From: a virus
Lineage: Duplodnaviria; Heunggongvirae; Uroviricota; Caudoviricetes
DNA length: 64,000 nt
Virus record (IMG/VR): IMGVR_UViG_3300029656_000140
Direction: 5' to 3' (one strand)
Part shown: positions 29,999 through 58,016 of the stretch, piece after piece
How positions within the stretch are numbered: the stretch's first letter is position 1
Layout: each line of letters begins with the position of its first letter
Notes under the pieces: generated by a model
Database searches by the model: none
Told to the model about the DNA's origin: nothing
The model's input: the letters and a program-made list of their open reading frames with translations, nothing else
Made by a program: the position numbers and the translations under genes

Positions 29999-30330
29999 GC
30001 TGGAAAGTTGAATACCTCCCTGAAGCAGAAAAAGACCTCAAAGGTTTAGATGGTAGCCAGCGCAATCTTGTTCTGAAAGCCATCAAAAAAGTTCAGCAAA
30101 ATCCACTGCCTGTTGATGAACAGGGCTACGGCAAACCGCTCGGCAATCACAACAGCACTAACCTTGCAGGACTTCTGAAAATCAAACTCCGCTCTGCGGG
30201 TCTGCGCATTGTCTATCAGCTTCGACGTACTGAGACATCTATGATGATTATTGTCATTGGAGTCCGTGCTGATGAAGAAGTGTACGAACTTGCCCAGAAG
30301 AGAGTTCTGAAGCACGAAAAGTCCGATTGA
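29995..30330 (+). CDS. RelE/ParE-family toxin
   Basis: LKIKLRSAGLRIVYQLRRTETSMMIIVIGVRADEEVY matches the RelE/ParE core. Confidence 0.8.
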   Translation: MSWKVEYLPEAEKDLKGLDGSQRNLVLKAIKKVQQNPLPVDEQGYGKPLGNHNSTNLAGLLKIKLRSAGLRIVYQLRRTETSMMIIVIGVRADEEVYELAQKRVLKHEKSD

Positions 30331-39984: not shown

Positions 39985-40100
39985 CTTTCTGCAAAAATGG
40001 GTAAAGAAAAAGGACCTCCAAAGAAGTCCTTAAAATATCATTTTCCCAAACGGGAAACTTTTTCGTATGAATAGTAAATAGTTTCCCATTTTGACAACTT
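39985..40100 (-). promoter_or_regulatory. structured leader upstream of terS: alternative pairings GGGAAAC / GTTTCCC / GGGAAAA plus a terminator-like hairpin and U-tract
   Basis: The minus-strand transcript reads GGGAAACUAUUUACUAUUCAUACGAAAAAGUUUCCCGUUUGGGAAAAUG...AAGGACUUCUUUGGAGGUCCUUUUUCUUU. It is a possible attenuator or antitermination target for late-operon control. Confidence 0.35.
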
Positions 40101-40163
40101 TATATAAAACACATCGGATACGAGGCACAGCCCCTTTTCGGGGCGTGTACCTTTTGGGTGCTG

Positions 40164-40541
40164 TTATGCGTTGGGGTTGGCTTCCTTCCAAGCCTCGTAC
40201 TCATCGACCAGCTCCGCTTCCTCGATGACCTGCCAGACGCTGCAGAAGCGGCTTCTCTGCTGCTCAATCTCCGCTTCTGTCCAGTCTTCCGGCTTGCGGC
40301 TCATGTCGTGGTAGGCATCCATCTCCGCTTTCGTCCGGAAGAAAAGGATCTGCTTCAGCTTCAGCGTTTCCTCGTTGTTCCGCAGGCTGTACCGCTTGTC
40401 TTCCGCCGCCCTGCAAAGGCTTCCGAGGTCGTTGCAGCTGAGGGTCATGTCCTGCTTGAAGGCGATCTCGATGCCGATCAGCTTCTTCTCGGTGTCGGCT
40501 TCCTTAATGTTCTTGAGGTAGGTTTTTGCTTTGTTCGTCAT
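40164..40541 (-). CDS. hypothetical protein (first accessory cassette gene)
   Basis: RBS GGAGGA. Cassette copy 1 lies upstream. Confidence 0.5.
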   Translation of the reverse strand: MTNKAKTYLKNIKEADTEKKLIGIEIAFKQDMTLSCNDLGSLCRAAEDKRYSLRNNEETLKLKQILFFRTKAEMDAYHDMSRKPEDWTEAEIEQQRSRFCSVWQVIEEAELVDEYEAWKEANPNA

Positions 40542-40594
40542 GGTCTGTATCCTCCGTGTGTTTTGTTTTCCGTAGGGCTTTTCCCTTCGTTGTG

Positions 40595-40650
40595 ACTGTA
40601 TATTACCGTCACCGCCCGGACATAGCAAGCGGCTATGCTGCACGATCATA
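40595..40650 (-). promoter_or_regulatory. conserved promoter cassette copy 1 (-35 TTGCTA, 17 bp, -10 TAATAT, AGCCGCTTG box)
   Basis: The minus strand reads GATCGTG...TAGCCGCTTGCTATGTCCGGGCGGTGACGGTAATATACA. Confidence 0.6.
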
Positions 40651-40740
40651 CACACCTCTTTTTGTCGGATTTATGTGTATTTACACGCCGGAGAAATCCG
40701 CCACTACGAGCAAAAGCCCCCGAAGGAGCTCTGCCTTTTT

Positions 40741-41025
40741 TCAGTGTGCGTTCTTGATGCACCACTCGATCGCGTGACCGGCATCCGTGTAGGTCTCATT
40801 GGAAATCTTCAGAAGCTCCAGTCGGCACTCAATCGGTGACCAGCCTTCCTCTGGGTCTTCGACAAATCCGTATACCGCTCCCTCCAGCATGCCATTCCAG
40901 TTCATCTGGGCAACCAAAACCCGGTCACCGAACTGCATGATGCTGTCGTAGCAAGGTCTGAGTCGGTCGTAGAAACTCTCTATGCTGATGTTGTTTTCTG
41001 GAAAGTCGATCAAAGGCTTTTTCAT
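40741..41025 (-). CDS. hypothetical protein
   Basis: Has its own cassette. A UUCG hairpin terminator lies downstream at ~40700-40730. Confidence 0.5.
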   Translation of the reverse strand: MKKPLIDFPENNISIESFYDRLRPCYDSIMQFGDRVLVAQMNWNGMLEGAVYGFVEDPEEGWSPIECRLELLKISNETYTDAGHAIEWCIKNAH

Positions 41026-41074
41026 GATAAAATCCTCCGTGTTTTCGTTTTTCCCTTGGGGCTTTCCCCTTTCG

Positions 41075-41130
41075 GTATGTGCATATTACCGTCAGGTGCA
41101 AAGGATAGCAAGCGGCTAAAGTACACGATC
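41075..41130 (-). promoter_or_regulatory. promoter cassette copy 2
   Basis: The minus strand reads GATCGTGTACTTTAGCCGCTTGCTATCCTTTGCACCTGACGGTAATATGCAC. Confidence 0.6.
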
Positions 41131-41160
41131 TTCTGCCCGGAATACCAGGCAGAATGTACG

Positions 41161-41358
41161 TCACTCTGCGTCCTGCTCCATGAGTTCCACAACGGTATCG
41201 TAGAAGAACTGCGGGTCATATGCCAGCGGTTCCCGTCCGGCTTCCTTGTCTATCCTGATCTGGTCTTCCACCATATCCTCGGCATCCCCCAGTGTGAAGG
41301 CATCCTTATCGCGATCATCCATGTGGTTGTAGATTTTATCCATCATCCGTTCTCCCAT
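41161..41358 (-). CDS. small acidic hypothetical protein
   Basis: ATG at 41358 follows the RBS GGAAGGA. Confidence 0.45.
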   Translation of the reverse strand: MGERMMDKIYNHMDDRDKDAFTLGDAEDMVEDQIRIDKEAGREPLAYDPQFFYDTVVELMEQDAE

Positions 41359-41486
41359 GTGTTTTTCCTTCCTGGCGCATCCACACCCCCACATCTGCCC
41401 CCGTCTGGGGCGTTGTCGGTTCATTCGGATCGTTTTGCCACCCGTGGCACAAGCCCCTGTGTGGGGCTGTGTCGGGGGCTGTCGGT

Positions 41487-41678
41487 TTATCTGGTCATCC
41501 GTCCCAGCAGGTAGGCTTCCTCCATTGCTTTCTGGATGCTCCAGACCGGAACCTCAATAAAGTCCTCGCTGTCATTGTCGCGGGCTTTCAGGTCGCCCCG
41601 ACTGTCTACCGCTGCCATCAGGCGCTTGGCGATCTCCAGCAGGGCTTTTTCCTCTTCCTTGGTAATGTTCTTCTTCAT
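41487..41678 (-). CDS. small hypothetical protein
   Basis: RBS AACGGAGGAAACC. Confidence 0.45.
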   Translation of the reverse strand: MKKNITKEEEKALLEIAKRLMAAVDSRGDLKARDNDSEDFIEVPVWSIQKAMEEAYLLGRMTR

Positions 41679-41714
41679 GGTGGTTTCCTCCGTTTTTCTT
41701 GGGTTTCCGTTTCG

Positions 41715-41770
41715 GTATGTGCATATTACCGTCTATGTCACACACTATCAAGCGGCTATACTACACAAAG
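41715..41770 (-). promoter_or_regulatory. promoter cassette copy 3
   Basis: The minus strand reads TAGCCGCTTGATAGTGTGTGACATAGACGGTAATATGCAC. Confidence 0.6.
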
Positions 41771-41848
41771 ATAGCCGCCCGGAACTGTGCGTATTACAGC
41801 AGAAGAAAAGGGCTGCCGTTACCGGCAAGCCCCATGTGTTTCTCTGGC

Positions 41849-42298
41849 TTAGTAGTCTTCTTCGTCCTCGTAATCTTCCTCTTCGCCCCAGTCATCTTCC
41901 TCTTCATCCCAGCTGTCATCCTGGTCTTCTTCCTCATCCTTGAAGTCCCACATATCTTCGGTCGGCTGGTTTCTAAGGTCTGGGTTCTGCTCAACATAGT
42001 CGGCAACCGCTCCGCAAAGGATGTCCAGAACCTTTTCGTAGGCTTCCTCACTGTAGACTGCCCAGGCATCTGCAGTCAGCTTTGCGATTTTGTCGTTGCC
42101 CTTGGCTCCAAGGAACCGCCCTGCAGGGTTGCAGGTTTCCTTGCCGTAGCCGATGCCCAGCTGGTCGCCGTCGTTGTAAAAGCGGTATCCGATGCGGCTC
42201 ATTGCCCTTACCAGCTCCCCTGCGAGGCTGTCTGCCTTGCCCGTATCCGGTACCAGTTCCTTGAAAAGTTTATTGATGCGGTCTTCGTTCTTCGTCAT
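41849..42298 (-). CDS. hypothetical protein with extremely acidic C-terminal tail (DNA-mimic candidate)
   Basis: The C-terminus is DEEEDQDDSWDEEEDDWGEEEDYEDEEDY. ATG at 42298 follows the RBS GGAGGA. Confidence 0.5.
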   Translation of the reverse strand: MTKNEDRINKLFKELVPDTGKADSLAGELVRAMSRIGYRFYNDGDQLGIGYGKETCNPAGRFLGAKGNDKIAKLTADAWAVYSEEAYEKVLDILCGAVADYVEQNPDLRNQPTEDMWDFKDEEEDQDDSWDEEEDDWGEEEDYEDEEDY

Positions 42299-42342
42299 TG
42301 TCGTATCCTCCAGAATGTTGTTTTCGGTTTTTCTCCCTTTCG

Positions 42343-42398
42343 GTATGCACATATTACCGTCACTTTCGCACACTATCAAGCGGCTAAACTACACGATC
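42343..42398 (-). promoter_or_regulatory. promoter cassette copy 4
   Basis: The minus strand reads TTTAGCCGCTTGATAGTGTGCGAAAGTGACGGTAATATGTGC, a perfect TTGATA-17-TAATAT. Confidence 0.65.
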
Positions 42399-42508
42399 AT
42401 CAAGCCCTGTAATTGTCATATTTATGTGCTTTTCATGCCAGCTTTCGGAAGACAGACACGAGCAAAAGGCTGGTCATTTCCAGCCCCTTGCGCCTGTCGG
42501 TCTTGCCT

Positions 42509-42769
42509 TTAGCGGATGATTTCGAGGTAGCTTACGTTGCCCCAGCAGTCCGTTCCCTTGAAGCGGATGCGCTTGTCGTTCTCCCTGTCGAGGGTGAATT
42601 TCCGAAGGAGCTTCATCTTCTGGATGCGGTTCAGAAGGTCCTTGCCGTTCTTCGCATCCTCAACGGCATCCCTGATCTCGACCACCGCACTGTCGCTTCC
42701 GTACCAGAGGTTGCTGAGTGCCTCTGGAATTCCGTTTGCAAGATAAAGGTTGATTTTTGTGTAGGTCAT
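42509..42769 (-). CDS. hypothetical protein
   Basis: It is co-transcribed with 42785-42991. Confidence 0.45.
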   Translation of the reverse strand: MTYTKINLYLANGIPEALSNLWYGSDSAVVEIRDAVEDAKNGKDLLNRIQKMKLLRKFTLDRENDKRIRFKGTDCWGNVSYLEIIR

Positions 42770-42784
42770 GTTTTTGTTCTCCTC

Positions 42785-42991
42785 TCAAAATGTCATCGTT
42801 TCCAGAATCTCATCCGCGCCTGTTTCCCAGTCGTGGCGGCTAAGTTCGATTTTGCTGTACATCTCTGCGCTGTCCGGCTCATCGAAAAGCCGGAAGCATT
42901 CTCTTGCCAGCTCCTCGCTGGTGTGCTGCTGGATTTCATCCGGCTGTCCATCCAGCCGTGTAAAGATAATCTCGTAAGTGTAGCGTTCCAT
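42785..42991 (-). CDS. small acidic hypothetical protein
   Basis: RBS AAAGGGG. Cassette copy 5 lies upstream. Confidence 0.45.
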   Translation of the reverse strand: MERYTYEIIFTRLDGQPDEIQQHTSEELARECFRLFDEPDSAEMYSKIELSRHDWETGADEILETMTF

Positions 42992-43014
42992 GTTCTTTGC
43001 CCCTTTCGTTTTGG

Positions 43015-43070
43015 TAGCTGTATATTACCGTCACTGCCGGACACTATCAAGCGGCTAAAGTACACGATCA
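43015..43070 (-). promoter_or_regulatory. promoter cassette copy 5
   Basis: The minus strand reads TTTAGCCGCTTGATAGTGTCCGGCAGTGACGGTAATATACAGC. Confidence 0.6.
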
Positions 43071-43131
43071 TCTGCGCCCTGAACTGGTGGATTTATGTGT
43101 TTATCCGGGGAGGTTTCCCTCCCCGTTTTTC

Positions 43132-43308
43132 TTAGCTGAACATCTCTGCCGTGTCATCGTCGATCCAGAGGTGCATGCCGTCTGCTTCCATGATTGCGTG
43201 GTCTTCATGAACCTCGGTGATGATTCCTTCCCGGCTTCCGCTTCCGTCGAATTCGTCCCAGTGCCATGTTGTCTTTCTCCCTTTTTTCCATGTTCTCCAA
43301 TCAGCCAT
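43132..43308 (-). CDS. small hypothetical protein (W-rich, acidic C-terminus)
   Basis: ATG at 43308 follows the RBS AAGGAGGA. Confidence 0.45.
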   Translation of the reverse strand: MADWRTWKKGRKTTWHWDEFDGSGSREGIITEVHEDHAIMEADGMHLWIDDDTAEMFS

Positions 43309-43329
43309 TCTGCTGTCCTCCTTTGCTTT

Positions 43330-43395
43330 TTGTAGCTGTATATTACCGTCACCGCCCTGTGATAGCAAGGCCATAAAACGTCATATTATCAACGA
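43330..43395 (-). promoter_or_regulatory. promoter cassette copy 6 (variant with GGCCTTGCTAT box)
   Basis: The minus strand reads GATCGTTGATAATATGACGTTTTATGGCCTTGCTATCACAGGGCGGTGACGGTAATATACAGC. Confidence 0.55.
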
Positions 43396-43517
43396 TCTTC
43401 GCCCCTCATGTTTGGTACATATATGACCCCTGATTGACTTGCTATATATGTGTTTCTGCGGCATTATACACACAACGAAAGCAAAGAAAACCAAACCAAA
43501 AACGGAGGACAAAAACC

Positions 43518-43775
43518 ATGAAAAAGACCATTACAGAAGTTGAAACCGCAATCGAAAACCGCATCGCAGAGCTTGAAGAAGAATACGAGCTGGACATTTA
43601 CGACCGCAACGACATCCGGGAAGAAGAATACCAGAAAGCCGGATGGCGGCACGACCCTTTCCCAGAGGAGCTTGAGGAAGAGGAAGAGGACGAAGAAGAG
43701 GAAGAGGATTGGCACTACCACAGCATGGAGGAACGACTGAACGAGGTCGGCATGAGCATGAGGGATTTCTTCTAA
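43518..43775 (+). CDS. small poly-glutamate acidic protein (DNA-mimic candidate), the only plus-strand gene in the island
   Basis: It contains ELEEEEEDEEEEEDWHYH. RBS AACGGAGGA. A hairpin follows at 43792-43809. Confidence 0.5.
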   Translation: MKKTITEVETAIENRIAELEEEYELDIYDRNDIREEEYQKAGWRHDPFPEELEEEEEDEEEEEDWHYHSMEERLNEVGMSMRDFF

Positions 43776-43791
43776 GGAATCCCAAGAGGCT

Positions 43792-43835
43792 CCCCAGCAG
43801 AGGCTGGGGCTCTGCCTCGTATCCCCCGTTTTGGT
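43792..43835 (+). terminator. putative terminator after the acidic plus-strand gene
   Basis: ccccagc-agag-gctgggg, then a T-rich tract ~18 nt later. This is a weak call. Confidence 0.35.
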
Positions 43836-43973
43836 TTGGTATGATACACAAAACCGCTGCCAGATGTTTGTGTACATTATGGCGGCGGTTCTCCTTGCTA
43901 TCGTTGCTTTCCAGAGGTAATATACAGTAAACTGGAAGGGGGTTCTCATTCTTTTGAGGCCCCCATTTTCCGT

Positions 43974-44165
43974 CTAATCGGCTTCGCCCTGTATTGCCTC
44001 ATGCATCACCCTGCGGTTATGCGCTCTGGCTTTCTTTTTCAGGTCCCTTTTCCATCTGCGGATGGTCACCGCCTTGCAGTGGTTTCTCGACCATTCGTAT
44101 TCATTCAGAATGTATCTGCCGCCGTGTTCCCTCTCGCCATAAGCCGGCATCTTTCTGTGTCCCAT
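43974..44165 (-). CDS. small basic hypothetical protein
   Basis: A K/R-rich 63-aa ORF at the end of the cassette-7 operon. Confidence 0.35.
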   Translation of the reverse strand: MGHRKMPAYGEREHGGRYILNEYEWSRNHCKAVTIRRWKRDLKKKARAHNRRVMHEAIQGEAD

Positions 44166-44236
44166 AGGCCCCTCCTGTTAAACCAAGCCCTCCCGGTCTT
44201 TTCTGGCCGAGAGGGTATTTTTCTGATCGTGGTATC

Positions 44237-44608
44237 TTATTCCGGCTTCGTTCCGTCATCCATCTGGATGACTGCCATCTGCCCGAACATGCTGACGAAT
44301 GCCTCCGGCACCCAGAAGCGTTCCCTGAATTTCCTGAGCAGGTCCTGGGGCAGCTCTGCGAAATCTTCCTCGCCCAATCCGCAGATGAAGAAGTTTCCCT
44401 TGATAGGCTGCTCCAGTTCCGGGATGTATCTGCTGAATGACTTCTCGGTGAACAGACCGTTGTCATCGGTGACCAGGGCGGCACGTTCTTCCCACGGGTA
44501 GGTGGCTGTGATGCAGTCGCAGTCGAGGATGCGGTAGAACTCTTTCAGGGAGTTTTCAATGTCCACCACCTGCGGATGCTCCATCGGTTTGATCAGAAGA
44601 ACTTTCAT
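44237..44608 (-). CDS. DUF3846-like protein
   Basis: MKVLLIKP...GNFFICGLGEEDFAELPQDL matches the DUF3846 pattern. Confidence 0.55.
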   Translation of the reverse strand: MKVLLIKPMEHPQVVDIENSLKEFYRILDCDCITATYPWEERAALVTDDNGLFTEKSFSRYIPELEQPIKGNFFICGLGEEDFAELPQDLLRKFRERFWVPEAFVSMFGQMAVIQMDDGTKPE

Positions 44609-45072
44609 TCGACCCATCCCCCTTTCACGATTGCCCAGTCTGCAAGATGCATCTTCTGCTGTCCGCCCCATGCAATGTCCTCTAATGCTTCCTCCGTTCC
44701 GCAGCGGTTGCAAATCTGGATGTCCGCCCTTCGGCTGAGTGCCTGCTGCTGATGGTCGTAGCAGTCAGGCTTTGCTCCGCACCTGGGGCAACGTGGGCCG
44801 GTCTGTCGCGTTTTACCAAAGTGGTCGAGCGACACCTTGACCTCGGCATCCGTTGCCACACGGTGGCAACTGTCCGCGCCGTAGGCAACATTAAGATGGC
44901 TTCCGGTGTCCCAGTTCACCAAGATGTTTCCGGCATCATCGACCCCGTTGCAGGTTCCCTGCGTTCCGATGGGCGGTGCCTGCCTATCATCCATCTCATC
45001 GAGGACGATCCGGCATCTGACCGGGAACTCTTTTCTCAACTTCTTGACCATTTTCTGATCTGCGAAATTCAT
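44605..45072 (-). CDS. DUF4314-like protein with C-terminal Cys4 zinc ribbon
   Basis: RIVLDEMDDRQAPPIGTQGTCNGVDDAGNILVNWDTGSHLNVAYGADSC is DUF4314-like. CPRCG...CNRCG follows. Confidence 0.55.
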   Translation of the reverse strand: MNFADQKMVKKLRKEFPVRCRIVLDEMDDRQAPPIGTQGTCNGVDDAGNILVNWDTGSHLNVAYGADSCHRVATDAEVKVSLDHFGKTRQTGPRCPRCGAKPDCYDHQQQALSRRADIQICNRCGTEEALEDIAWGGQQKMHLADWAIVKGGWVE

Positions 45073-45554
45073 GCCTGCACCTCCTCGATCATCCGCTGGG
45101 CGGCATCCTTATCCATGCATTCCTTCAGCGCACCTTCGAGGATGTGCATCGGGAAGTGGAATGCCTTGTAGCCGTCATGCAGGACTTTGTAGTAATACCG
45201 GCTCGGTGAGCGGCGTCCGAAGTCGTTCTCCATGATGTAGACCATTGCGGTCACCATCTCCGGCTCTGCCCCTTCCCGGAGCAGTTCGATGTTCAGGTCT
45301 TCCTTGCGGTAGTAGTTCGGGTAGCCCTCATAGAGGTCGAGGTTTCCTTCGTCCCTTTCCGAGATCTCCCACACCAGAACCGGCGTATTCTTCTTCGGGT
45401 TCGGCGCGATGGTAGCGCAGCCCCGGAACAAAAGCTCCCAGCCGGCCAGCACCGCCTGTCCTGCGATTCGGGCATCCGGACACCGGTATGCCATCTGCTC
45501 TACCGACAGGTTGCTGCCGTAGGCAATGTAGTATTTCTTGTTCTTCATATTCAT
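45069..45554 (-). CDS. gamma-glutamyl cyclotransferase (GGCT/AIG2-like) family protein 1
   Basis: YYIAYGSNLSVEQM...AGWELLF...VLVWEISERDEGNLDLYEGYPNYY is the GGCT/AIG2 signature. Confidence 0.75.
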   Translation of the reverse strand: MNMKNKKYYIAYGSNLSVEQMAYRCPDARIAGQAVLAGWELLFRGCATIAPNPKKNTPVLVWEISERDEGNLDLYEGYPNYYRKEDLNIELLREGAEPEMVTAMVYIMENDFGRRSPSRYYYKVLHDGYKAFHFPMHILEGALKECMDKDAAQRMIEEVQA

Positions 45555-45594
45555 TCGCTCCCTTCAAGCTCTGTTTTCTTCCGCTCTTGTCTGG

Positions 45595-45645
45595 CGGTAT
45601 GGTATATATCACTCTTTTGCCCTGATTTATCAAGGCCGATGAGTT
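45595..45645 (-). promoter_or_regulatory. promoter cassette copy 7 (subtype B: GGCCTTGATA...AGAGTGATATAT)
   Basis: The minus strand reads GGCCTTGATAAATCAGGGCAAAAGAGTGATATATACC. Confidence 0.5.
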
Positions 45646-45686
45646 TCATATCCTGCACAATGTTTTCTGCCTGTGATCGTGTACTT

Positions 45687-46217
45687 TTACACCATCCGCA
45701 GTTTCTTCAGATACCGGACGGCTTCTGTTCGTCCGATACTGGCGGCAAGCCCTCGCTTCAGTGTGTCTGTCGGAAACTCCCAATCGCTGTATCCTCCACA
45801 GAGCAAATCGAAATACTCGGCATCCGGGCAGCCAAGCTGCCGCTCCTCGTGCATCACATAGGCCATGCAGGTCTTCGGCTTCTTCATGCGGTTACCGCTC
45901 ATGTTCCAGACGGGAAGCTGGAACTGCTTCTTGTAGTAGTACCGCGGGAAGCCCTCGTACCGGTCCAGCAGAAGCTCATCGTATTCCGAGAGTTTCCAAA
46001 CCACAGCCGGTACGCTTTCGTTGGCATCCTGCTCGATGGTAGCGTAGCTCCCGGTCTTACTCTTCTTGAACAGGAGCCGGTAGCCGTAGATCTCAGTCAC
46101 ACCGACCGGCACTGCATAGGGGCATCTCCGTCCCATCCGTTCCATGTCGAGGTTGCTTCCGTAGGCAAGATAGAACTTGGATGGCGTCCGGCTGATCATT
46201 TCAAACTGCTCATTCAT
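45687..46217 (-). CDS. GGCT/AIG2-like family protein 2 (paralog)
   Basis: FYLAYGSNLDMERM...YGYRLLF...AVVWKLSEYDELLLDRYEGFPRYY. ATG at 46217 follows the RBS GGGAGGACGG. Confidence 0.75.
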   Translation of the reverse strand: MNEQFEMISRTPSKFYLAYGSNLDMERMGRRCPYAVPVGVTEIYGYRLLFKKSKTGSYATIEQDANESVPAVVWKLSEYDELLLDRYEGFPRYYYKKQFQLPVWNMSGNRMKKPKTCMAYVMHEERQLGCPDAEYFDLLCGGYSDWEFPTDTLKRGLAASIGRTEAVRYLKKLRMV

Positions 46218-46449
46218 CCGAACCACCGTCCTCCCTGCCCATAAATTCCACACCCTGAAAATCTTCCTTTTCAAGTTCGATCTGGCTGTCCTGCCACCAG
46301 TCCTCCGCCATGCGCTCGGCTTCCTGGACGGTTGGCTCTTTCATTTCGGATTCATACACCGTGATGGTTCTCTGGTAGGTTTCGGTGATGGTCACCTTGA
46401 ATGCCCTTCCCATCTGGGTGATTTCATTTTTTACCGTGCTTTTTTTCAT
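46210..46449 (-). CDS. DpnD/PcfM-like small protein
   Basis: FKVTITETYQRTITVYESEMKEPTVQEAERMAEDWWQDSQIELEKEDFQGVEF matches the DpnD/PcfM pattern. Confidence 0.65.
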   Translation of the reverse strand: MKKSTVKNEITQMGRAFKVTITETYQRTITVYESEMKEPTVQEAERMAEDWWQDSQIELEKEDFQGVEFMGREDGGSDE

Positions 46450-46516
46450 AATCCTGCACCTCCTTCTACCACCTCAAGGGCGGTTTCCCGCCCAAAAGGT
46501 GCCCGTGCATTCCGGC

Positions 46517-47452
46517 TTATTTGTTCCGCCAGGATGCGTTGCCCTCCATGTTCCGCAGAAGGATTTCCCTTGCCGTTGCAAATTCCTCACCGATGAATCC
46601 CAGCCTCAGCATCCAGCACCGCATTGCGTATTTGTCGTTGTCGGTCTGCTGGGGTCTTGGGCTTGCCGTTCTGACCATCTTGGCAAGCTGGCTCATTGCA
46701 AGGCAAAGCTGGATGTAGGCTTTCATCTCACCGGCATGCAGTCCGTTGCGCTTTCCATCCGCAGGGTCGGCAAATTGGAAAAGCCGAAATTCAATGGTTC
46801 CCTTTGTGAAAGTGGCATGCAGGTTCAGCATGTGGTATCGGCTTGAATTGTAGTGTTGGCTTCTGCCGTAGTCGGCTCCATTGCCCTCGTACCAGATGTC
46901 TGCAAGCTGGCTCATGGTGGTCGGCTTCTCGCGGTTCAGCCGTTCAAGAAAGCGGTGGTTGACCACCTGGCAATAATGTCCGGTGCGCCCCGCATCGATG
47001 CGGATGGCTCTGCCAATCTGTCGCTCATGCGCCGCCATGATGTTTACCAGATTCCGCAGGGTCTTTGCAGTGTGGTCGCCTTTTCCGATGTGAATGTGGA
47101 CTCCGCAGCCGCGACTTGGTCCACTTTTTCCTCCTGCCTTGCGGAGCAGCCGGATGATGTCCTGCAGGGTTTCGATGTCCTCGTAGATGAGGATCGGGGT
47201 GACCAATTCGCATTTCTCAGCGTCCGGTCCGTTGATGCTCACATCCCTCTGGAACTTCCAAACTCTGCCCTGCTGGTCTTTGCAAGCCCAGCTGGAATAT
47301 CCGTACTCGCTGGCGGCATTCCATGCTCTGGTTCCGAAGTATTCGGCAACCTTTCTGGCAGCCTTTTCTCTGGTGATGTTGTTCATCTCGATCTCAACCC
47401 CGATGGTCTGCTTCTTCATGGCTTCAATCTGCTCTCTCGTTTTATCGTTCAT
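46517..47452 (-). CDS. amidoligase (GCS2/glutamine-synthetase-like carboxylate-amine ligase, Amidoligase_2-type)
   Basis: IGVEIEMN (GxExE strand), CGVHIHIG and GTIEFRLF are hallmarks of the family. ATG at 47452 follows the RBS AAAGGAGAA. Confidence 0.75.
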   Translation of the reverse strand: MNDKTREQIEAMKKQTIGVEIEMNNITREKAARKVAEYFGTRAWNAASEYGYSSWACKDQQGRVWKFQRDVSINGPDAEKCELVTPILIYEDIETLQDIIRLLRKAGGKSGPSRGCGVHIHIGKGDHTAKTLRNLVNIMAAHERQIGRAIRIDAGRTGHYCQVVNHRFLERLNREKPTTMSQLADIWYEGNGADYGRSQHYNSSRYHMLNLHATFTKGTIEFRLFQFADPADGKRNGLHAGEMKAYIQLCLAMSQLAKMVRTASPRPQQTDNDKYAMRCWMLRLGFIGEEFATAREILLRNMEGNASWRNK

Positions 47453-47489
47453 GGTATGTTCTCCTTTGCTTTTTCCTTGTTTTCCGTTT

Positions 47490-47550
47490 CGGTATGTGCA
47501 TATTACCGTCTTACGCACACGATAGCAAGGCCATAAAAGAACATATATTC
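47490..47550 (-). promoter_or_regulatory. promoter cassette copy 8
   Basis: The minus strand reads ATGGCCTTGCTATCGTGTGCGTAAGACGGTAATATGCAC. Confidence 0.6.
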
Positions 47551-47683
47551 GACAAATATGAGGTCGAAAGATCGTGTACATTTCTGCGGTTTATCCGCTT
47601 GATAATGTACATTTTCAGAGTTATTATCGGTACAATGGAAGAGGGTCTCGCATATTTCCGGCCCCCATTGGGGACTTGGGAGC

Positions 47684-48775
47684 TTACGCTCCCGCCTCCA
47701 GCATCTGCGCCGTGTCTGCCCCACAGTCGGGCTGTGTCGGCTGGTTTTCTTCCTGTTCGACCGTTTCCCCTGTGGCAGGATCGCTGTTCTGTGCCGCCAG
47801 TTTCGCGGCTTTCAGGGCATCCCGTTTTGCCTTTTCCCTTGCAAGAAACTTCTGTGCTTCCTCATCCGTGCGGAAAGCCGCATGGCCGGAAAGGTTCTCC
47901 ATGAGGATCTTGCGTGTCTCTTTGAAATCCGGACCGTTCATCCCCAGCCGCAGGAGCCATGTGCGGAGTGCGTATTTCTCATTCTCATCGTTGACATCCT
48001 TTGCCTGGATACGTTTCTGGCTGATGGCCTGCTGGTTCATCAGGATGGCAAGGTGGCCAAAAGCCGTTAGGTGATCATAGTCGGAAGCCGTCGGGAATCC
48101 TGTGAAGGAAACCTTTTCTTCTGTGATCACCAGACCTTCCATCGCAGTTCCGCACTGTGCTTCGTAACTCTTAAGCGCCTCGATGAAGTTTGCCACCGTG
48201 TAAGTACAGCTGTCATCCCGCAGTGTTTCGACCAGATCGGTTTCCACATGGAAGTGCCCACCCGTTGCCTTGCTGATGAGTCGGCCCCGGCTGTAGATGA
48301 GGTTGACCAGATTGCGAAGGCTCACGCCGTTATGCTGGCTGGTGGGGAAAGCAAGTTCCAGATCCAGCGGCACTTCTTCCGGCTGGTCTTCTGCTTCCGG
48401 CTGCTCTTCGCTTTCCGATTCCTCTGCATCCGGCTCATCCTCTGTTGCACCATCCTCTGCCGTATCATCCGGCTCCTCTTCGGTCACAGGCTCCGCTGTC
48501 AAATTCTCAGTCGGCTCTGTGTTTTCCGGCTGGTCATCCGTGCTCTCAATGCTCTCGCCGCCGCGGATCAGTCCCTCATTCAGCAGGGTCGTCAGCAGCT
48601 CGGCATCTGCATTCTCCGGCTCGACCAGAAGATTGCCGTCCCGGTCGATGGTGTAGTTGCCGATGTCATAAGCATACAGCGGTGCTCTGGTGTAGTAAGG
48701 ATGGATACCCGTCAGCTCCTCCATGCGATTTGCAAGTGTCTTACGGTCTGCTATGTTCAATTCAAATTTCAACAT
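47684..48775 (-). CDS. divergent amidoligase paralog with ~80-aa acidic low-complexity insertion
   Basis: The C-terminal half aligns with 46517-47452 (NEKYALRTWLLRLGMNGPDFKETRKILMENLSGHAAFR versus NDKYAMRCWMLRLGFIGEEFATAREILLRNMEGNASWR). It carries GGHFHVE. RBS AAAGGGG. Confidence 0.6.
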   Translation of the reverse strand: MLKFELNIADRKTLANRMEELTGIHPYYTRAPLYAYDIGNYTIDRDGNLLVEPENADAELLTTLLNEGLIRGGESIESTDDQPENTEPTENLTAEPVTEEEPDDTAEDGATEDEPDAEESESEEQPEAEDQPEEVPLDLELAFPTSQHNGVSLRNLVNLIYSRGRLISKATGGHFHVETDLVETLRDDSCTYTVANFIEALKSYEAQCGTAMEGLVITEEKVSFTGFPTASDYDHLTAFGHLAILMNQQAISQKRIQAKDVNDENEKYALRTWLLRLGMNGPDFKETRKILMENLSGHAAFRTDEEAQKFLAREKAKRDALKAAKLAAQNSDPATGETVEQEENQPTQPDCGADTAQMLEAGA

Positions 48776-48829
48776 AATTCATTGCCCCTTTCGTTTTCTT
48801 CTGTTTTTGTGCATCCCGATGTTCTTTTC

Positions 48830-48880
48830 GGTAGCACATATATCACTCTGAACCGGTCAAATATCAAGGCCATTTCCCGA
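48830..48880 (-). promoter_or_regulatory. promoter cassette copy 9 (subtype B)
   Basis: The minus strand reads GGCCTTGATATTTGACCGGTTCAGAGTGATATATGTGC. Confidence 0.5.
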
Positions 48881-48999
48881 TATTCTTCATGTTCGACTAA
48901 TTACACAAGGGACTGCGAAATCTGTTGTGTAAATAGGACCAATATGTAAGCCCACCATATCACCAGGTCGCTTTCTACCTAGTAATATAGCGGGCCAGT

Positions 49000-51129
49000 T
49001 TATTCTTCCAGACCTGCACACCATGCGATGCCGGCCAGAACAAAAAATGCGTTGGCCAGGCATATGCCGTTGCCCCAGATACGGTACTCTGCCGAATCTG
49101 TATACGGGTCAGCCAGCCATTTCCGGATCTGTTTCTCCGTTTTCGGCTTCTTGGCGTGGGTCACGATCTTGCGGTGCGTTTCAAACGCATCTGCCCAGAA
49201 CGTCAGCTCTTCTTCGGTCGGATCTTCTGTTCCAAGGTTCCGGCACCACCAGTCCGGGAAGCCCTGCAGTCTGGCACACTCGGTCGGTGTCAAGCGGCGG
49301 ACGGTATAGGTCACAGGTGCAGGCTGTGCTTCCGGGTTGTCGATGACCAGACGGTCATTGAAAACGTCCTGCCCGTTAAAGCCGCTGGGATGTGCCCCGG
49401 TTGCCACGGTTCCCATGACACCCTCGTTCAGATGCGGCACCGGCGCGATGGTGGTCGGGTCTTTGTAGTCCCGTGCCATCAGGGTCGGTGCGACTTCTTT
49501 TTCCACCTGCATATAGGAGCCGGTGGTCATGGCATACACATCCTCCGGTGCGCAGACTGCATGGCGGTCAGTGGCATCCAGTGTAAAGCAGACATCCTCA
49601 TTGACGCCATCTCCCTGCGGACCGTTCTCATCCTTGCGGCCGATCATGTTGCCCTGCAGGACGAAGGTCTGCTGCTTCATCCCCGGCTCTGCTGCAAGTG
49701 CCGCTGACTTCTCTCCCAGATCCCGGACTTCATCCCTCTGGTTCTGGGTAAAGGCGACCGGCTCTACCACACAGATACCGCCCTGATTGCAGGTCGGATC
49801 TCCACCACTGCGGTCTAGTGTCCGGGAGGTCTCCGCTTCATAGAAGCCGCTATGCGGATTATCGGACATCATGGAGTGGCTGGCTTTAGAGCAGACACCG
49901 TAGCATTTCGGAACGAACAGTGTCTGGTCGTTGTTGCAGCCGAGGGTAGCTGACTTTTCTTCCTGCCAGATAGCGCCCTTGCCACCGCCTTCACACCCGG
50001 AACGGATCTTCAATGTGACCGCCGGAGAGTTTTCAACTTCTTTCACCGGGCTTTCCACTGAATTTTCAACAGCGTCCATGACCATCGGGACATTACCGCC
50101 ACCCGTACCACACCGGCTTGTCAGTGTCTGTACCTTACCGTCCTCGGAAATCTTCACCCGGCTGTCCGCAGGATGATTTTCCAGTGCGATGGCGGCCGGC
50201 ACGACACCAGCCCGGAGGGTCGGTGACCGTTCCTCTTCGTATCCAATGCTTCTGGCATTTGCGGAATGCTCGGTACAGAAACCAGCGGCTTCCATAACAC
50301 ACGGCGGATGATGTGCCTCCGCACGGAGGGTGGCTGTCACCTCTTCCGTCACATCCATCCTCTCTACGCCCTGATCGTTCAGACAGAGCCGTCCTCCTGC
50401 TCCACTGCAGCCTGTCTCTCCAGCGCCGCTTTCAGCACCGGCGGCAGCTCTTTGCCACGCACGGAAGCTCTCCGCAGAATACCGAGACACGCCTTCGGAC
50501 TCAAATAATACCTTTGGGGCACTCTGGTCTGCAAAATCTGCGACAAGGTAGATACGTTTTCTTCTTTGGGGAACGCCCCACCATTGTGCATCAAAAACTC
50601 GATACGCGACGCTCCATCCGTCTCCCACGTAGTAGTCAGCGTCGGGCCATCCTTTCTTCTCAGGCGCAGGCACCGAGGCGGACGGTTCTTTAACACCGAT
50701 GACGGCTTCGAGGACTGCTTTGAAGTCCTGTCCTTTGTTTGAGGAGAAGGCCCCTGGCACATTCTCCCACACGATAAATCTTGGTTTTTCTCCATTGGTC
50801 TTACACCTCATTTCCTTCACGATTCGGATTGCTTCGTAAAACAGGCTGGACCGTGAACCATCCAGACCGTCCCGCTTACCCGCGATGGACATATCCTGAC
50901 AGGGACTGCCAAAAGTGATGATGTCTACAGGAGGTAGGTCTGCACCGCTGATGGCAGACACATCTCCATAATGCTTCACCTGCGGCAGACGCTTGGTCGT
51001 GACCCGGATGGCAAACGGCTCGATCTCACTGCTCCACACCGGAGTGATCTGCCCGGTCAAAAGCCCGCCCAATGGAAAACCCCCGGAGCCATCAAAGAGG
51101 CTGCCGAGGGTCAGCTGTTTATTCTCCAT
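49000..51129 (-). CDS. DNA (cytosine-5)-methyltransferase with a very large variable/target-recognition insertion
   Basis: Motif I LFDGSGG, motif IV GSPCQDMS, motif VI ENVPG, and C-terminal RLTPTECARLQGFPDWW. About 400 aa lie between the ENV region and the C-terminal motifs. Confidence 0.85.
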   Translation of the reverse strand: MENKQLTLGSLFDGSGGFPLGGLLTGQITPVWSSEIEPFAIRVTTKRLPQVKHYGDVSAISGADLPPVDIITFGSPCQDMSIAGKRDGLDGSRSSLFYEAIRIVKEMRCKTNGEKPRFIVWENVPGAFSSNKGQDFKAVLEAVIGVKEPSASVPAPEKKGWPDADYYVGDGWSVAYRVFDAQWWGVPQRRKRIYLVADFADQSAPKVLFESEGVSRYSAESFRAWQRAAAGAESGAGETGCSGAGGRLCLNDQGVERMDVTEEVTATLRAEAHHPPCVMEAAGFCTEHSANARSIGYEEERSPTLRAGVVPAAIALENHPADSRVKISEDGKVQTLTSRCGTGGGNVPMVMDAVENSVESPVKEVENSPAVTLKIRSGCEGGGKGAIWQEEKSATLGCNNDQTLFVPKCYGVCSKASHSMMSDNPHSGFYEAETSRTLDRSGGDPTCNQGGICVVEPVAFTQNQRDEVRDLGEKSAALAAEPGMKQQTFVLQGNMIGRKDENGPQGDGVNEDVCFTLDATDRHAVCAPEDVYAMTTGSYMQVEKEVAPTLMARDYKDPTTIAPVPHLNEGVMGTVATGAHPSGFNGQDVFNDRLVIDNPEAQPAPVTYTVRRLTPTECARLQGFPDWWCRNLGTEDPTEEELTFWADAFETHRKIVTHAKKPKTEKQIRKWLADPYTDSAEYRIWGNGICLANAFFVLAGIAWCAGLEE

Positions 51130-52390
51130 CAGCGACCTCCCTTTCCGGCTCGAAGGTCGCCACTTCCTCGAACTTCAGCTTCTGACTGTCACGGATGACA
51201 TACACATCATCGTAGTGACCCTCGCTGTGTTCGATATAACGCTTCACGATCACATCCACGAACTTCGGGTCCAGCTCGATGCCTCGGCACACACGGTCGG
51301 TTTCTTCGCAGGCGATCAGGGTAGAACCGCTGCCAAGGAACGGATCAAGGACGATACCGTTTGTCATAGTGGAATTGCGGATCGGATAGCTCATCAGGCC
51401 GATGGGCTTCATGGTCGGATGGTCCTTGTTGGACTTCGGCCGGTCATACTCCCAAATGGTCGTCTGCTTTCGGTCGGAATACCACTGGTGCTTTCCCTTC
51501 TGCTTCCAGCCGTAGAGACACGGCTCGTGCTGCCACTGGTAAGGACTTCGTCCCAGCACCAGAGCATTCTTCTTCCAGATACAGCACCCGGACAGGTAGA
51601 ACCCGGCATCCTTGAATGCCTTTCTAAAGTTCAGCCCTTCCGTATCTGCATGGAAGATGTAGATGGAGCCGTCATCCGCCAGATGACCATGCATCTGCTG
51701 GAATGCTGCCAGAAGGAACTGGTAGAATTCCGAGTCACCCATGTTGTCGTTCAGGATCTTGCCAGCCGTTTCTTCCACATCCACGTTATAAGGGGGATCG
51801 GAAAGTACCAGATTTGCCTTGGTGCCGTCCATCAGGGTATCGTAGCATTCTGGCTTGGTGGAATCGCCGCACAGAACGATGTGCTTACCCAGATGCCAGA
51901 GGTCGCCCTCTTTGGAGAAGCACGGCTGCTTCAGCTCCGATTCCACATCGAAGTCATCTTCCTTGACCTCTTTGCTGTGGACCTTGTTGAACAGCGTCTC
52001 GATCTCAGGCGGGTCAAAGCCTGTCTTACCGAGGTCGAAGTTGGAATCTTCGATGTCCTTGAGCAGGTCAGCCAGCAGAGAATCATCCCATGCACCCGTG
52101 ATCTTGTTGAGTGCGATGTTCAGGGCTTTCTCCCTGGTCTTGTCGATGTCCACCACCGCACAAGGCACTTCGGTGTATCCCAGCTCCATCGCTACGGTCA
52201 GTCTCTGGTGACCACCGATGATCGTCATGTCGGCATTGACCACCAAAGGATCTGCGAAACCGAACTCCGTGATGGAATTCTTGATCTTCTCGTACTCTTT
52301 ATCCCCCGGCTTCAGCTTTTTCCGGGGATTGTATGCAGCCGGCTTGAGTACAGACACCGGCAGCATCTTTAGTTCAGCAGTCGCTTTCAT
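51119..52390 (-). CDS. ParB-like nuclease domain fused to N6-adenine/N4-cytosine DNA methyltransferase
   Basis: The N-terminal ParB/Srx fold (KPAAYNPRK, IIGGHQRL) is followed by DPPY and the SAM-binding motif VLDPFLGSGST. Confidence 0.85.
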   Translation of the reverse strand: MKATAELKMLPVSVLKPAAYNPRKKLKPGDKEYEKIKNSITEFGFADPLVVNADMTIIGGHQRLTVAMELGYTEVPCAVVDIDKTREKALNIALNKITGAWDDSLLADLLKDIEDSNFDLGKTGFDPPEIETLFNKVHSKEVKEDDFDVESELKQPCFSKEGDLWHLGKHIVLCGDSTKPECYDTLMDGTKANLVLSDPPYNVDVEETAGKILNDNMGDSEFYQFLLAAFQQMHGHLADDGSIYIFHADTEGLNFRKAFKDAGFYLSGCCIWKKNALVLGRSPYQWQHEPCLYGWKQKGKHQWYSDRKQTTIWEYDRPKSNKDHPTMKPIGLMSYPIRNSTMTNGIVLDPFLGSGSTLIACEETDRVCRGIELDPKFVDVIVKRYIEHSEGHYDDVYVIRDSQKLKFEEVATFEPEREVADGE

Positions 52391-53689: not shown

Positions 53690-54757
53690 TCAGTCCTCCC
53701 ACGGAAGACCAGCCTTACCGAAGTGACCGTAAGCACTGACCTTGTTGTAGTCTACATCCAGCAGTCCCAGACGCTGGATAATCCCCTGCGGGGTCAGATC
53801 GTAGCTGTCATGGACATAGGCTTCGATGAAGTCAATGGACTGGTGTTCCGTACCGAAGCACTCCACCGACACCCCCACCGGCTGCACCACGCCGATAGCG
53901 TAAGCCAGCTGGACTTCGCACTTGTCAGCGTAGCCCGCCTGCACGATGTCCTTGGCAATCTTCCTCGCCATGTATGCTGCGGAACGGTCCACCTTGGTGG
54001 GATCTTTACCGCTCAGAGCGCCACCACCCATGCGACCGATACCGCCGTAGGTATCGCACGCCAGCTTTCGACCAGTCACACCACAGTCGGCGTAGCTGCC
54101 GCCCAGCACGAAACGACCGGTCGGATTGACGAGCTTCGTAAAGTCACCGTCCAGACCGTATTCGCAGGCGGCCAATACCATCATGGATTCGATGATGTGC
54201 CGGAAGTCGCTGACCTCCACATCCGGGCTATGCTGCACGGAACAGAGGAAGGTGGTGATACGACCGGTGTCGTAATCGTAGCTGACCTGTGCCTTGGCAT
54301 CTGCACGGAACATCTTAGACGGATGGTTCTTCAGCAGTTGCAGGAACTTGGTGGCGACCATATACGGGATCGGCATCTGCTCTGCCGTCTCGTTGGTAGC
54401 GTAGCCATACATGATTCCCTGGTCACCGGCTCCGCCCTTATCCACACCAAGTGCAATGTCCGGGGACTGCTTGTCCACCAGAATGCCAATGCGAAGAAGC
54501 TCGGTCAGGTTCCACCCCAGCTTTTCGGCACCGATGCGGTTGAACACATCGTGGACGATCTGGTTGTAGTTTGGCCGATAGTCGGTGGTGACCTCACCGG
54601 CAATAAAAAGCTGGCTCTTTTTCAGCAGACACTCGATTGCCACACGGGCGTTCTTGTCATGCTGAAGGATGTCGGTCACAATGCCATCTGCGATCTGGTC
54701 ACAGATCTTATCGGGATGGCCATTGCTGACCTGTTCACAAGTGATGATCTTACTCAT
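53690..54757 (-). CDS. metK: S-adenosylmethionine synthetase (MetK), compact phage-encoded version
   Basis: SNGHPDKICDQIAD, GAGDQG and GGGALSGKDPTKVDRSAAY are MetK signatures. It is 355 aa. Confidence 0.85.
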   Translation of the reverse strand: MSKIITCEQVSNGHPDKICDQIADGIVTDILQHDKNARVAIECLLKKSQLFIAGEVTTDYRPNYNQIVHDVFNRIGAEKLGWNLTELLRIGILVDKQSPDIALGVDKGGAGDQGIMYGYATNETAEQMPIPYMVATKFLQLLKNHPSKMFRADAKAQVSYDYDTGRITTFLCSVQHSPDVEVSDFRHIIESMMVLAACEYGLDGDFTKLVNPTGRFVLGGSYADCGVTGRKLACDTYGGIGRMGGGALSGKDPTKVDRSAAYMARKIAKDIVQAGYADKCEVQLAYAIGVVQPVGVSVECFGTEHQSIDFIEAYVHDSYDLTPQGIIQRLGLLDVDYNKVSAYGHFGKAGLPWED

Positions 54758-57456: not shown

Positions 57457-58016
57457 GCCTGTGCCTCCCTTCCCATACAAGCCTGCATCGCAAACTGCTT
57501 TTTAACCGCAGCTTCGATCTCCTGCTTTTTCCTGGCCGAGGTCACACGGCAGAGCCGGTTGCACAGAACCATCTTGTCAATGGTCGTGATCTGCTCCACC
57601 AGCAGAATGGATTCTTCCAGTCCCTCATCCCGGAGCATTTCGCAGTCTCTCCCGGTGACCGGAATGTGTACCGGCAGCTCCAGCTTCTTCAGCTTGGAAC
57701 TCATCGGGATTACCGTGATAATCGGAGAATTGCGGTTTGCCATATCGTTGCTGATAACCAGCACCGGGCGGTTTCCGCTCTGCACCGAAGTGCCATAATG
57801 ATTCCCCAGTTCTGCAAACCAGATCTCATACTGCTTCGGTATCTTTGGTACCGGCCATCTGGTAAGCGGCATCTCCTGAAGCAGCACTCTATTAGGTGCC
57901 GGCTGACAGGAGGCTACTGCCCTTTTCTTGGTCTTCCCTCGCTGATTGATGTATTTATTAACGTGGATCTTTCGTCCATGTGCTGCTGACCGGGCATTCT
58001 TTTTCTTTCTCCCCAT
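57453..58016 (-). CDS. PemK/MazF-fold protein with basic N-terminal extension
   Basis: EIWFAELGNHYGTSVQSGNRPVLVISNDMANRNSPIITVIPMSS matches the MazF/PemK core. RBS GGAGGTGA. It is the first gene after promoter 58170-58205. Confidence 0.6.
   Translation of the reverse strand: MGRKKKNARSAAHGRKIHVNKYINQRGKTKKRAVASCQPAPNRVLLQEMPLTRWPVPKIPKQYEIWFAELGNHYGTSVQSGNRPVLVISNDMANRNSPIITVIPMSSKLKKLELPVHIPVTGRDCEMLRDEGLEESILLVEQITTIDKMVLCNRLCRVTSARKKQEIEAAVKKQFAMQACMGREAQA

Follow-up and report, generated by a model that had tools for sequence, protein, structure and literature searches.

The window analysed here, 64,000 nucleotides of Caudoviricetes DNA (IMG/VR record IMGVR_UViG_3300029656_000140), carries a 9-kb island of small accessory genes between the terminase gene terS and two methyltransferase genes. 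Throughout the island, one extended promoter-like sequence recurs at the heads of successive units. This cassette consists of TTG(A/C)TA, 17 bp, TAATAT, a conserved A start and a purine-rich, unstructured leader. Nine copies lie on the minus strand, and where relatives lack a whole unit, its two flanking cassettes are replaced by a single chimera of both. The cassettes probably act as promoters for the host RNA polymerase while doubling as homology patches through which accessory units are exchanged.

The accessory island

The features of the island and its borders are given below from the methyltransferases toward terS, with positions counted along the whole window.

51119-52390: ParB-N6 methyltransferase
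49000-51129: C5 methyltransferase
48819..48888, minus strand: cassette P9, subtype B (GGCC-TTGATA-N12-AGAGTGATATAT, leader GTGCTACCGAAAAG); drives g1
47684..48775, minus strand: g1, 363 amino acids (aa), acidic linker; phrog_2443 'amidoligase enzyme'
47578..47647, plus strand: inverted cassette P+b (CCGC-TTGATA-N17-TATTAT); faces the 3' end of g1
47480..47549, minus strand: cassette P8 (GGCC-TTGCTA-N12-GACGG-TAATAT-GCACATACCGAAACGG); drives g2-g3-g4
46517..47452, minus strand: g2, Amidoligase_2
46210..46449, minus strand: g3, DpnD/PcfM-like
45687..46217, minus strand: g4, GGACT (gamma-glutamyl cyclotransferase-like)
45585..45654, minus strand: cassette P7, subtype B; drives g5-g6-g7 and probably g8
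45069..45554, minus strand: g5, GGACT paralogue
44605..45072, minus strand: g6, DUF4314
44237..44608, minus strand: g7, DUF3846
43974..44165, minus strand: g8, 63 aa, very basic, no family
43874..43943, plus strand: inverted cassette P+a (TTGCTA-N17-TAATAT); faces the 3' end of g8
43518..43775, plus strand: 85 aa gene, very acidic, the island's sole plus-strand gene
43418..43487, plus strand: diverged inverted cassette P+c (TTGCTA-N17-CATTAT-ACACACAACGAAAGC); drives the plus-strand gene, divergent from P6
43320..43389, minus strand: cassette P6; drives g9
43132..43308, minus strand: g9, 58 aa orphan
43106..43125: bidirectional GC hairpin after g9
43002..43071, minus strand: cassette P5; drives g10-g11, with GAAAGGGG as the actual ribosome-binding site (RBS)
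42785..42991, minus strand: g10, 68 aa orphan
42509..42769, minus strand: g11, 86 aa orphan
42468..42487, minus strand: terminator hairpin after g11 (GGGGCTGG-AAATGA-CCAGCC + TTTTGC)
42331..42400, minus strand: cassette P4; drives g12
41849..42298, minus strand: g12, 149 aa, acidic tail, no family
41810..41833, minus strand: terminator hairpin after g12 (GGGGCTTGCCGGTAACGGCAGCCC + TTTTCTT)
41703..41772, minus strand: cassette P3; drives g13 (and g14)
41487..41678, minus strand: g13, DUF6900
41161..41358, minus strand: g14, 65 aa orphan
41063..41132, minus strand: cassette P2; drives g15
40741..41025, minus strand: g15, Nmad4 (nucleotide-modification-associated domain 4)
40710..40734, minus strand: UUCG-loop terminator hairpin after g15
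40580..40649, minus strand: cassette P1; drives g16
40164..40541, minus strand: g16, 125 aa orphan
40010..40031, minus strand: strong intrinsic terminator that isolates the island from the late operon, 30 nt ahead of the terS start codon
39493-39978: terS, Terminase_4

Sixteen island genes lie on the minus strand and one on the plus strand. A preliminary description of this locus, made from its letters alone, had placed the array between terS and the methyltransferases, and the Terminase_4, C5 and ParB-N6 matches agree. Its term 'monocistronic units' applies to five of the nine; the others carry up to four genes. In nearly every unit a stable GC-rich hairpin directly follows the stop codon, and one stands 30-90 nt upstream of almost every cassette. 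The hairpin sequences vary, and about half have no U-tract; one is present after g11, g12 and g15 and absent after g9, g13, g14 and g16. The 'several' UUCG-type terminators first described reduce to the one at 40710-40734, as the others have no UUCG loop. A terminator scan of the region showed only mild enrichment (26 against 15.5 in shuffles) because many of the hairpins have no U-tract. The GC content of the units (0.49-0.56) does not differ from that of the phage (∼0.52).

A repeated cassette confined to the island

Searching both strands of the 64 kb with the pattern TTG[AC]TA-N16-18-T[AG]ATAT recovers all nine minus-strand cassettes where they were first reported (-35 starts at 48867, 47528, 45633, 43368, 43050, 42379, 41751, 41111 and 40628), each heading a small transcription unit. 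A single plus-strand match lies at 43895, and the rest of the window has none. A position weight matrix trained solely on homologous copies from other contigs gave seven of the window copies 64.6-92.8 bits, against 1.2 bits for the best of 20 control shuffles. On the plus strand the matrix found 43895 (36 bits), 47599 (34) and 43439 (17), so that three further copies add to the nine; there were no hits outside 40.5-48.9 kb. The exact 12-mer AGCCGCTTGMTA occurs five times in the window, always inside the island, and with up to two mismatches it matches 22 times compared with 8.0 ± 2.8 in shuffles. The repeat is confirmed, and is stronger than first claimed.

The two copies that escape the matrix (48867 and 45633; GGCCTTGATA-N12-AGAGTGATATAT) form subtype B, a real, separate and widespread family carried by 80 viral-contig stretches. 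The originally proposed division into two subtypes holds on the -10 side, where copies 7 and 9 stand apart from the rest, but fails on the upstream side, which splits differently: copies 1-5 have AGCCGC and copies 6-9 have GGCC. Copies 6 and 8, which pair the GGCC upstream half with the GACGG downstream half, are therefore mosaics, and every combination of upstream and downstream halves occurs. In >20 viral contigs (loci L226-L290 of the subtype B scan) the promoter of this subtype (CCTTGATA-N12-AGAGTGATATAT) stands in front of large serine recombinase genes, and it is thus not restricted to the accessory island.

Promoter anatomy and conservation footprint

All nine minus-strand copies and P+c are intergenic, lie upstream of a gene and point in its direction; P+a and P+b point at the 3' ends of genes. 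The -35 hexamer of every window copy is TTGATA (5/6 consensus positions) or TTGCTA (4/6). Seven copies combine a 17-bp spacer with TAATAT; in subtype B the register is ambiguous, with a spacer of 16-18 bp and GATATA, ATATAT or TGATAT as the -10 element. The start codon, with its own RBS, follows 31-59 nt after the -10 element.

This arrangement bears on whether the repeats are sites for a machine acting on DNA, such as integron-like attC sites, terminase-binding or pac repeats, or replication iterons. A tandem array beside terS with cassette-like gain and loss of open reading frames (ORFs) is what such a machine might leave. However, cassette orientation is strictly tied to the downstream ORF, inverted copies included, the distance to start codons is fixed, and the spacing between repeats ranges from 318 to >4000 bp. 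An integron cassette array was rejected specifically, as the window has no integron integrase and no attC-like imperfect palindrome, and the hairpin sequences are not conserved. We consider a DNA-level role extremely improbable.

The two inverted copies that face gene ends, P+a and P+b, keep their -35 and -10 elements in 22-23 unique relatives while their flanks vary, and the counterparts of P+b in relatives have TAATAT instead of TATTAT. A hairpin and T-run follow P+a by ∼10 nt, so that P+a could make an RNA of ∼50 nt. Otherwise, P+a and P+b could give rise to antisense transcripts or transcriptional interference.

A logo of 266 unique copies from other contigs defines the conservation footprint. 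C-36, TTG, TA, G-14 and TAATAT are near-invariant; an A lies 7 nt past the -10 element, the likely start, and is followed by conserved CC.AAA.GG. Between the boxes, a 12-nt stretch of the spacer is essentially unconstrained (0.03-0.7 bit). Ortholog alignments upstream of g12, g15, g16, g13 and g10 repeat the same footprint. This pattern already contradicts the idea that the copies are functionless leftovers of a recent tandem duplication of one unit. Copies 1-5 do share up to ∼110 bp, including flanks that look non-functional, but the cargo behind the copies is unrelated, the spacer stretch has diverged while the boxes are invariant, and the pattern persists among phages 66-75% identical and in hosts of different orders. 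Such an origin is very unlikely.

When one half of the promoter is anchored and the other half read, relatives display natural variants with TTGACA at -35, TATAAT at -10, or TGG-TAATAT, an extended -10 element. These variants drift toward the housekeeping-sigma consensus. Anatomy, orientation and position all fit the sigma-70/sigmaA-type promoter and leader proposed in the preliminary description, and we infer that the cassette is a promoter for host RNA polymerase carrying the housekeeping sigma factor. No fit to the cassette was seen for the other sigma factors compared (SigD, SigH, ECF and sporulation sigmas) or for Rex, CcpA, LexA or Spo0A boxes.

Several observations weigh against this assignment or against the modular role built on it. 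The hexamers match TTGACA/TATAAT at only 8-9 of 12 positions, which makes the original label 'near-consensus' generous, and a generic sigma-70 scan of the region is not enriched (9 sites against 8.5 in shuffles); the exceptional feature is the repetition of one extended sequence, not hexamer quality. Neither the invariant GACGG/GG nor C-36 is a classical sigmaA determinant, and both could signal dependence on a phage factor. Pfam and PHROGs searches of ∼45 window ORFs revealed no regulator or sigma gene near the island. Shared ancestry among the copies inflates the counts. Insulation may be leaky, given the many hairpins without a U-tract, and homology also breaks at plain gene boundaries, as in the deletion of g10, so that cassettes are not the sole recombination sites.

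Dependence on a phage factor is the core of a second explanation, in which the cassettes work as middle or late promoters with an obligatory phage-encoded activator or sigma-like factor and switch the island on only in the lytic cycle. That factor would recognize the conserved GACGG/AGAG, C-36 and the upstream motif. The most invariant bases are those outside canonical sigmaA determinants, and a bipartite motif (described below) sits on one helical face ∼60-70 bp upstream of the predicted start. The island also lies directly upstream of terS, where Firmicutes phages put late activator-dependent promoters, and a lysogen would run a risk with strong constitutive promoters aimed at the late operon. 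On the other hand, activator-dependent promoters normally have no good -35 element at optimal spacing, whereas here the -35 element and the 17 bp are near-invariant, and the natural variants move toward the sigmaA consensus. The window yielded no sigma, ArpU, RinA or Alt-like protein, the strong terminator at 40010-40031 already isolates terS, and subtype B drives serine recombinase genes in other elements. Activator-dependent promoters thus seem rather unlikely.

An upstream inverted motif and a conserved leader

The box AGCCGCTTG had been proposed as the site of one common regulator. Five of the nine window copies have it, as do roughly 40-45% of the unique copies from other contigs (190/436), so it cannot be a universal operator. 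No convincing dyad symmetry was found in the AGCCGC-TTG box. GATC in the upstream box as a methylation switch was rejected because only about half of the copies have it; the island as a whole shows no excess of GATC (36 sites against 48 expected).

A better candidate for the site of a common regulator is a bipartite inverted motif, TACACA(A)...(T)TGTGTA, upstream of the -35 element in cassettes of all subtypes. In 250 of 452 unique cassettes (55 expected) the distal half, TACAC(A/G), is found ∼50 bp ahead of the -35 element. For the proximal half, (C/T)GTGTA or TGTACA, the distance is 15 or 25 bp, two positions that differ by one helical turn, and the count is 286 of 452 (21 expected). Both halves occur together in 166 cassettes against 2.3 expected. 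The motif recurs where the sequences upstream of the cassettes are otherwise unrelated, and a perfect TTACACAA-N16-TTGTGTAA lies just upstream of P9 (48893-48924).

These numbers lend some weight to the view that the cassettes form an array of operators for one phage repressor, the units being silent in the lysogen and released together. TACACA...TGTGTA is ∼70-fold over shuffles and is found at the inverted copies P+a and P+b as well. Still, about a third of cassettes lack the motif or have only a degenerate form of it, the spacing between its halves varies from 16 to ∼30 bp, and no cognate helix-turn-helix (HTH) gene is linked to the island; the sole HTH gene found, XRE-type (4806-5147), belongs to a separate element at the left end. 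A repressor-controlled array is possible though doubtful, and, being compatible with the promoter reading, does not exclude it. We take GACGGTAATATACAG to resemble the phi105 operator GACGGAAATACAAG, as a lead only and not a test.

The leader poses a separate question. Its GAAAGGG had been read as a general RBS and works as one only in the P5 unit; most units use a GGAGG 25-40 nt further on. GAAAGG(G) instead occupies the extreme 5' end of the predicted transcript, and in most units no start codon follows it. STAB-SD or polypurine 5' elements of Bacillus (cryIIIA, phage SP82) protect Firmicute mRNA against 5' exonuclease. The cassette resembles these STAB-SD (stabilizing Shine-Dalgarno) elements in its Shine-Dalgarno-like GAAAGG(G/A)G at the predicted 5' end and its Firmicute host, and differs in having only a 6-nt anti-Shine-Dalgarno match and in that the same sequence is a working RBS in P5. 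RNAalifold found no pairs and no conserved structure in the seven subtype-A leaders, which rules out a riboswitch or attenuator there; an Rfam search of the island at E <= 1 returned no matches.

Recombination between cassettes

Unit content varies between relatives, and homology breakpoints with the window cluster at P8, P6, P5 and some gene boundaries. Across the fetched relative loci (numbered with the prefix L), the cassette precedes at least 59 first-gene clusters, with unit orders that differ between lineages. The most informative loci are those in which a unit is missing. The window's P6-g9-P5 corresponds to a single P6/P5 chimera in L055, L106, L029 and L261, from which the whole g9 unit is absent; in L055 and L106 the chimera has the upstream half of P6 and the downstream half of P5, with the crossover within the shared GTGACGGTAATATACAGCTAC. 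Similarly, P3-g13-g14-P2 is replaced in L162 by one P3/P2 chimera, and g13-g14 are absent. An automated chimera screen found P6/P5 (L029, L055 and L261) and P3/P2 (L162) and added a P2/P1 chimera in L027. Chimeric cassettes at unit-deletion junctions are direct evidence of cassette-to-cassette recombination, and its outcome is plain, as the chimeras sit exactly at these junctions. Gene g10 is precisely absent in L102, L088 and L075.

Distribution in phages and hosts

A scan of IMG/VR with CTTGMTA-N12-GACGGTAATAT found the cassette in at least 120 stretches; among the matches listed, 57 have at least three copies when the pattern is relaxed. The preliminary description had anticipated a portable cassette with different cargo and had named absence from related phages among its refuting conditions; the cassette is present there, in at least 120 contigs and before at least 59 first-gene families. 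A survey of species-representative genomes (596 Gb) identified arrays in the cultured isolates Faecalibacterium intestinale CLA-AA-H281 and Blautia sp. HCP28S3_G10 and in assemblies of Lawsonibacter, Wujia, Acetatifactor and Eubacterium. The hosts thus span Oscillospirales and Lachnospirales, and the F. intestinale prophage has seven copies and is 93% identical to the window. By our own estimate ∼35 single chance matches are expected in 596 Gb, which covers isolated hits in unrelated phyla.

The nearest GenBank phage is Clostridium phage NatCom_42228 (Ca. Heliusvirales). Its gene order matches that of the window (MazF-like gene, HNH at ∼53.3 kb of the window, methyltransferases, island, terS), and it has two diverged cassettes that keep the leader ACCGAAAGGGAAAAC. 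A megablast of the island against GenBank phages gave a single partial match, to the unannotated MT836278. The window has an HK97/cos-type TerL, a P27-type terS and serine recombinases. The phage is best explained as a temperate Ca. Heliusvirales siphophage of gut Clostridia, with the island as its hyperplastic accessory region. Ca. Heliusvirales rank among the phages most prevalent in the human gut (PMC9226167, PMC11283538). A 2024 paper on the order, the single paper searched for these terms, does not mention promoters or intergenic repeats, and a literature search for the motif string found it in no relevant paper.

Comparison with known systems

The premise that strings of separately promoted units are foreign to phages does not hold, as T4 early regions and promoter-early stem-loop (PeSL) cassettes are known (PMC2839356). 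PeSLs belong to T4-like myoviruses (Arbiol et al. 2010, PMC2839356; Comeau et al. 2014, PMC4122927), where crossovers fall between the -10 element and the Shine-Dalgarno sequence or inside the promoter (PMC2839356, PMC4122927). The island shares with them a repeated sigma-70-type promoter, an adjacent stem-loop, small orphan genes in a hyperplastic region, and units that bring their own expression and insulation signals. Indels between relatives are likewise bounded by cassettes and leave a single chimeric cassette. The differences are equally clear. Here the carrier is a temperate siphophage of Gram-positive anaerobes rather than a lytic T4-like myovirus of Proteobacteria, the sequences are unrelated, and one array beside terS contrasts with many hyperplastic regions. 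The stem-loop lies outside and upstream of the conserved repeat and differs in each unit, and the cassette adds a conserved 5' leader and an upstream inverted motif. PeSLs are also marked by excised mini-circles and early expression. The HK97-type TerL, P27-type terS, serine recombinases and Heliusvirales relative make this system a PeSL analogue, not a member by descent. The principle is known; this instance differs in sequence, phage order and extra conserved parts.

Morons, in turn, carry their own promoter and terminator, lie between phage genes and are absent from some relatives (Juhala/Hendrix; reviewed in PMC3594210). The g9 unit and the g13-g14 unit are similar in having their own promoter and terminator and in being absent from otherwise syntenic relatives. 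Expression from the repressed prophage and a distinct nucleotide composition are further moron traits. However, one cassette is common to all units of the island, whereas morons have no common flank and are presumed to move by illegitimate recombination, and the island's composition is not distinct from that of the phage.

Dispersed sets of sites under repressor control include the P1 C1 operators, the stoperators of mycobacteriophage L5 and Aca-controlled anti-CRISPR promoters; in the anti-CRISPR case, strong promoters precede small early counter-defence genes. The island resembles such sets in placing a short conserved site at many phage promoters, which allows co-regulation. It differs in that no repressor or Aca-like HTH gene was found and in that conservation spans promoter and leader.

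Cargo and neighbouring genes

Most of the cargo has no Pfam or PHROG function. The C-terminal domain of g1 is common to the amidoligase g2, and both match the amidoligase PHROG/Pfam family. Two GGACT paralogues, g4 and g5, follow these amidoligase-like genes, and Clostridium clostridioforme prophages list the same set of two amidoligases plus a cyclotransferase (PMC11318856). Extremely acidic segments occur in g12 (EEEDQDDSWDEEEDDWGEEEDYEDEEDY) and in the plus-strand gene at 43518-43775 (EEEEEDEEEEED), neither with a family match; the two products recall DNA-mimic anti-restriction proteins. That the cargo serves in counter-defence is plausible in view of the Nmad4, DUF3846, DUF4314 and amidoligase-GGACT families, the acidic proteins, and the adjacent methyltransferases and S-adenosylmethionine synthetase. 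These families are presumably of the kinds found in conflict systems.

Upstream of the methyltransferases lie a full S-adenosylmethionine synthetase and a MazF/PemK-like toxin domain (53690-54757 and 57453-58016), the latter protein having a basic N-terminal extension of ∼60 aa; both genes stand in the same order in NatCom_42228. At 29620-30330 on the plus strand, opposite to all surrounding tail genes, is a Phd/YefM-ParE-like toxin-antitoxin pair, a classical moron. Its promoter, a near-perfect TTGATA-N17-TATAAT with a TGn extended -10 element, is unrelated to the cassette family. The left end of the window (1-6900) looks like a separate small integrative element with a serine recombinase (1695-3683), an AAA_25 ATPase (3577-4557), the XRE-type HTH gene (plus strand) and a PBECR4 nuclease (5386-6048). 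Two large serine recombinases that belong to the phage itself follow at 6898-11309, and the phage lysin at 11425-13179.

Both borders of the island are structured. Directly after the C5 methyltransferase stop and upstream of P9, a near-perfect 20-bp hairpin occupies 48949-48996, within a 135-nt fold with a free energy of ∼-47 kcal/mol. At the other border, an AT-rich inverted repeat (GGGAAACT...AGTTTCCC, within 40010-40101) precedes the strong terminator near terS. Many relatives have a different allele of this repeat, and homology breaks at 40101 and at 40031-40040; the segment 40010-40101 may be a control region of the late operon or the cos region. In the search for cos and virion ends, an exact-protein look-up of terS gave one 639-nt contig, and the ends of the fetched loci were uninformative.

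Interpretation and outlook

We assign a probability of roughly 0.7 to the reading that host sigmaA-type promoter cassettes double as homology patches for insulated accessory units, with a co-regulator and a 5' mRNA element as likely extra layers. Each unit would be read in the order GC-rich hairpin, TACACA...TGTGTA, -35 element, 17 bp, TAATAT, A start, a leader beginning with ACCGAAAGG and one to four small genes, the hairpins insulating units from each other fully or in part. As units have 55-110 bp of cassette sequence in common, homologous recombination between cassettes would delete, insert or reorder whole units and leave genes and signals intact. Conservation goes beyond the needs of a sigma factor (C-36, GACGG or AGAG before the -10 element, the upstream motif and the 5' ACCGAAAGG), and this points to two further layers: a putative common DNA-binding regulator and a STAB-SD-type element at the mRNA 5' end.

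A bolder proposal, which we hold to be speculative and rather improbable, is that the cassette and TACACA...TGTGTA constitute a phage-wide regulon under a single regulator that fires swappable counter-defence units on DNA arrival. If the AT-rich region just upstream of terS holds cos, the island would be packaged last and therefore injected first. Its genes point back to the entering end, so a promoter per unit would allow transcription on entry without a distal promoter 9 kb away. Were this so, the island would parallel, in a phage, the 'leading region' of plasmids (PMC11541004), and the cassette could guide a search of Ca. Heliusvirales for new anti-defence genes, with at least 59 families of cargo to draw on.

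The conserved upstream motif points to a putative regulator acting on the island. The cassette also offers a simple sequence handle with which to harvest accessory, possibly counter-defence, genes from metagenomes, and natural, compact promoter and 5' untranslated region parts for use in Clostridia that are hard to manipulate, among them Faecalibacterium and Blautia. For phage biology, the island extends cassette-mediated modular shuffling, so far described from lytic T4-like phages, to the accessory region of a temperate gut phage of Gram-positive hosts.

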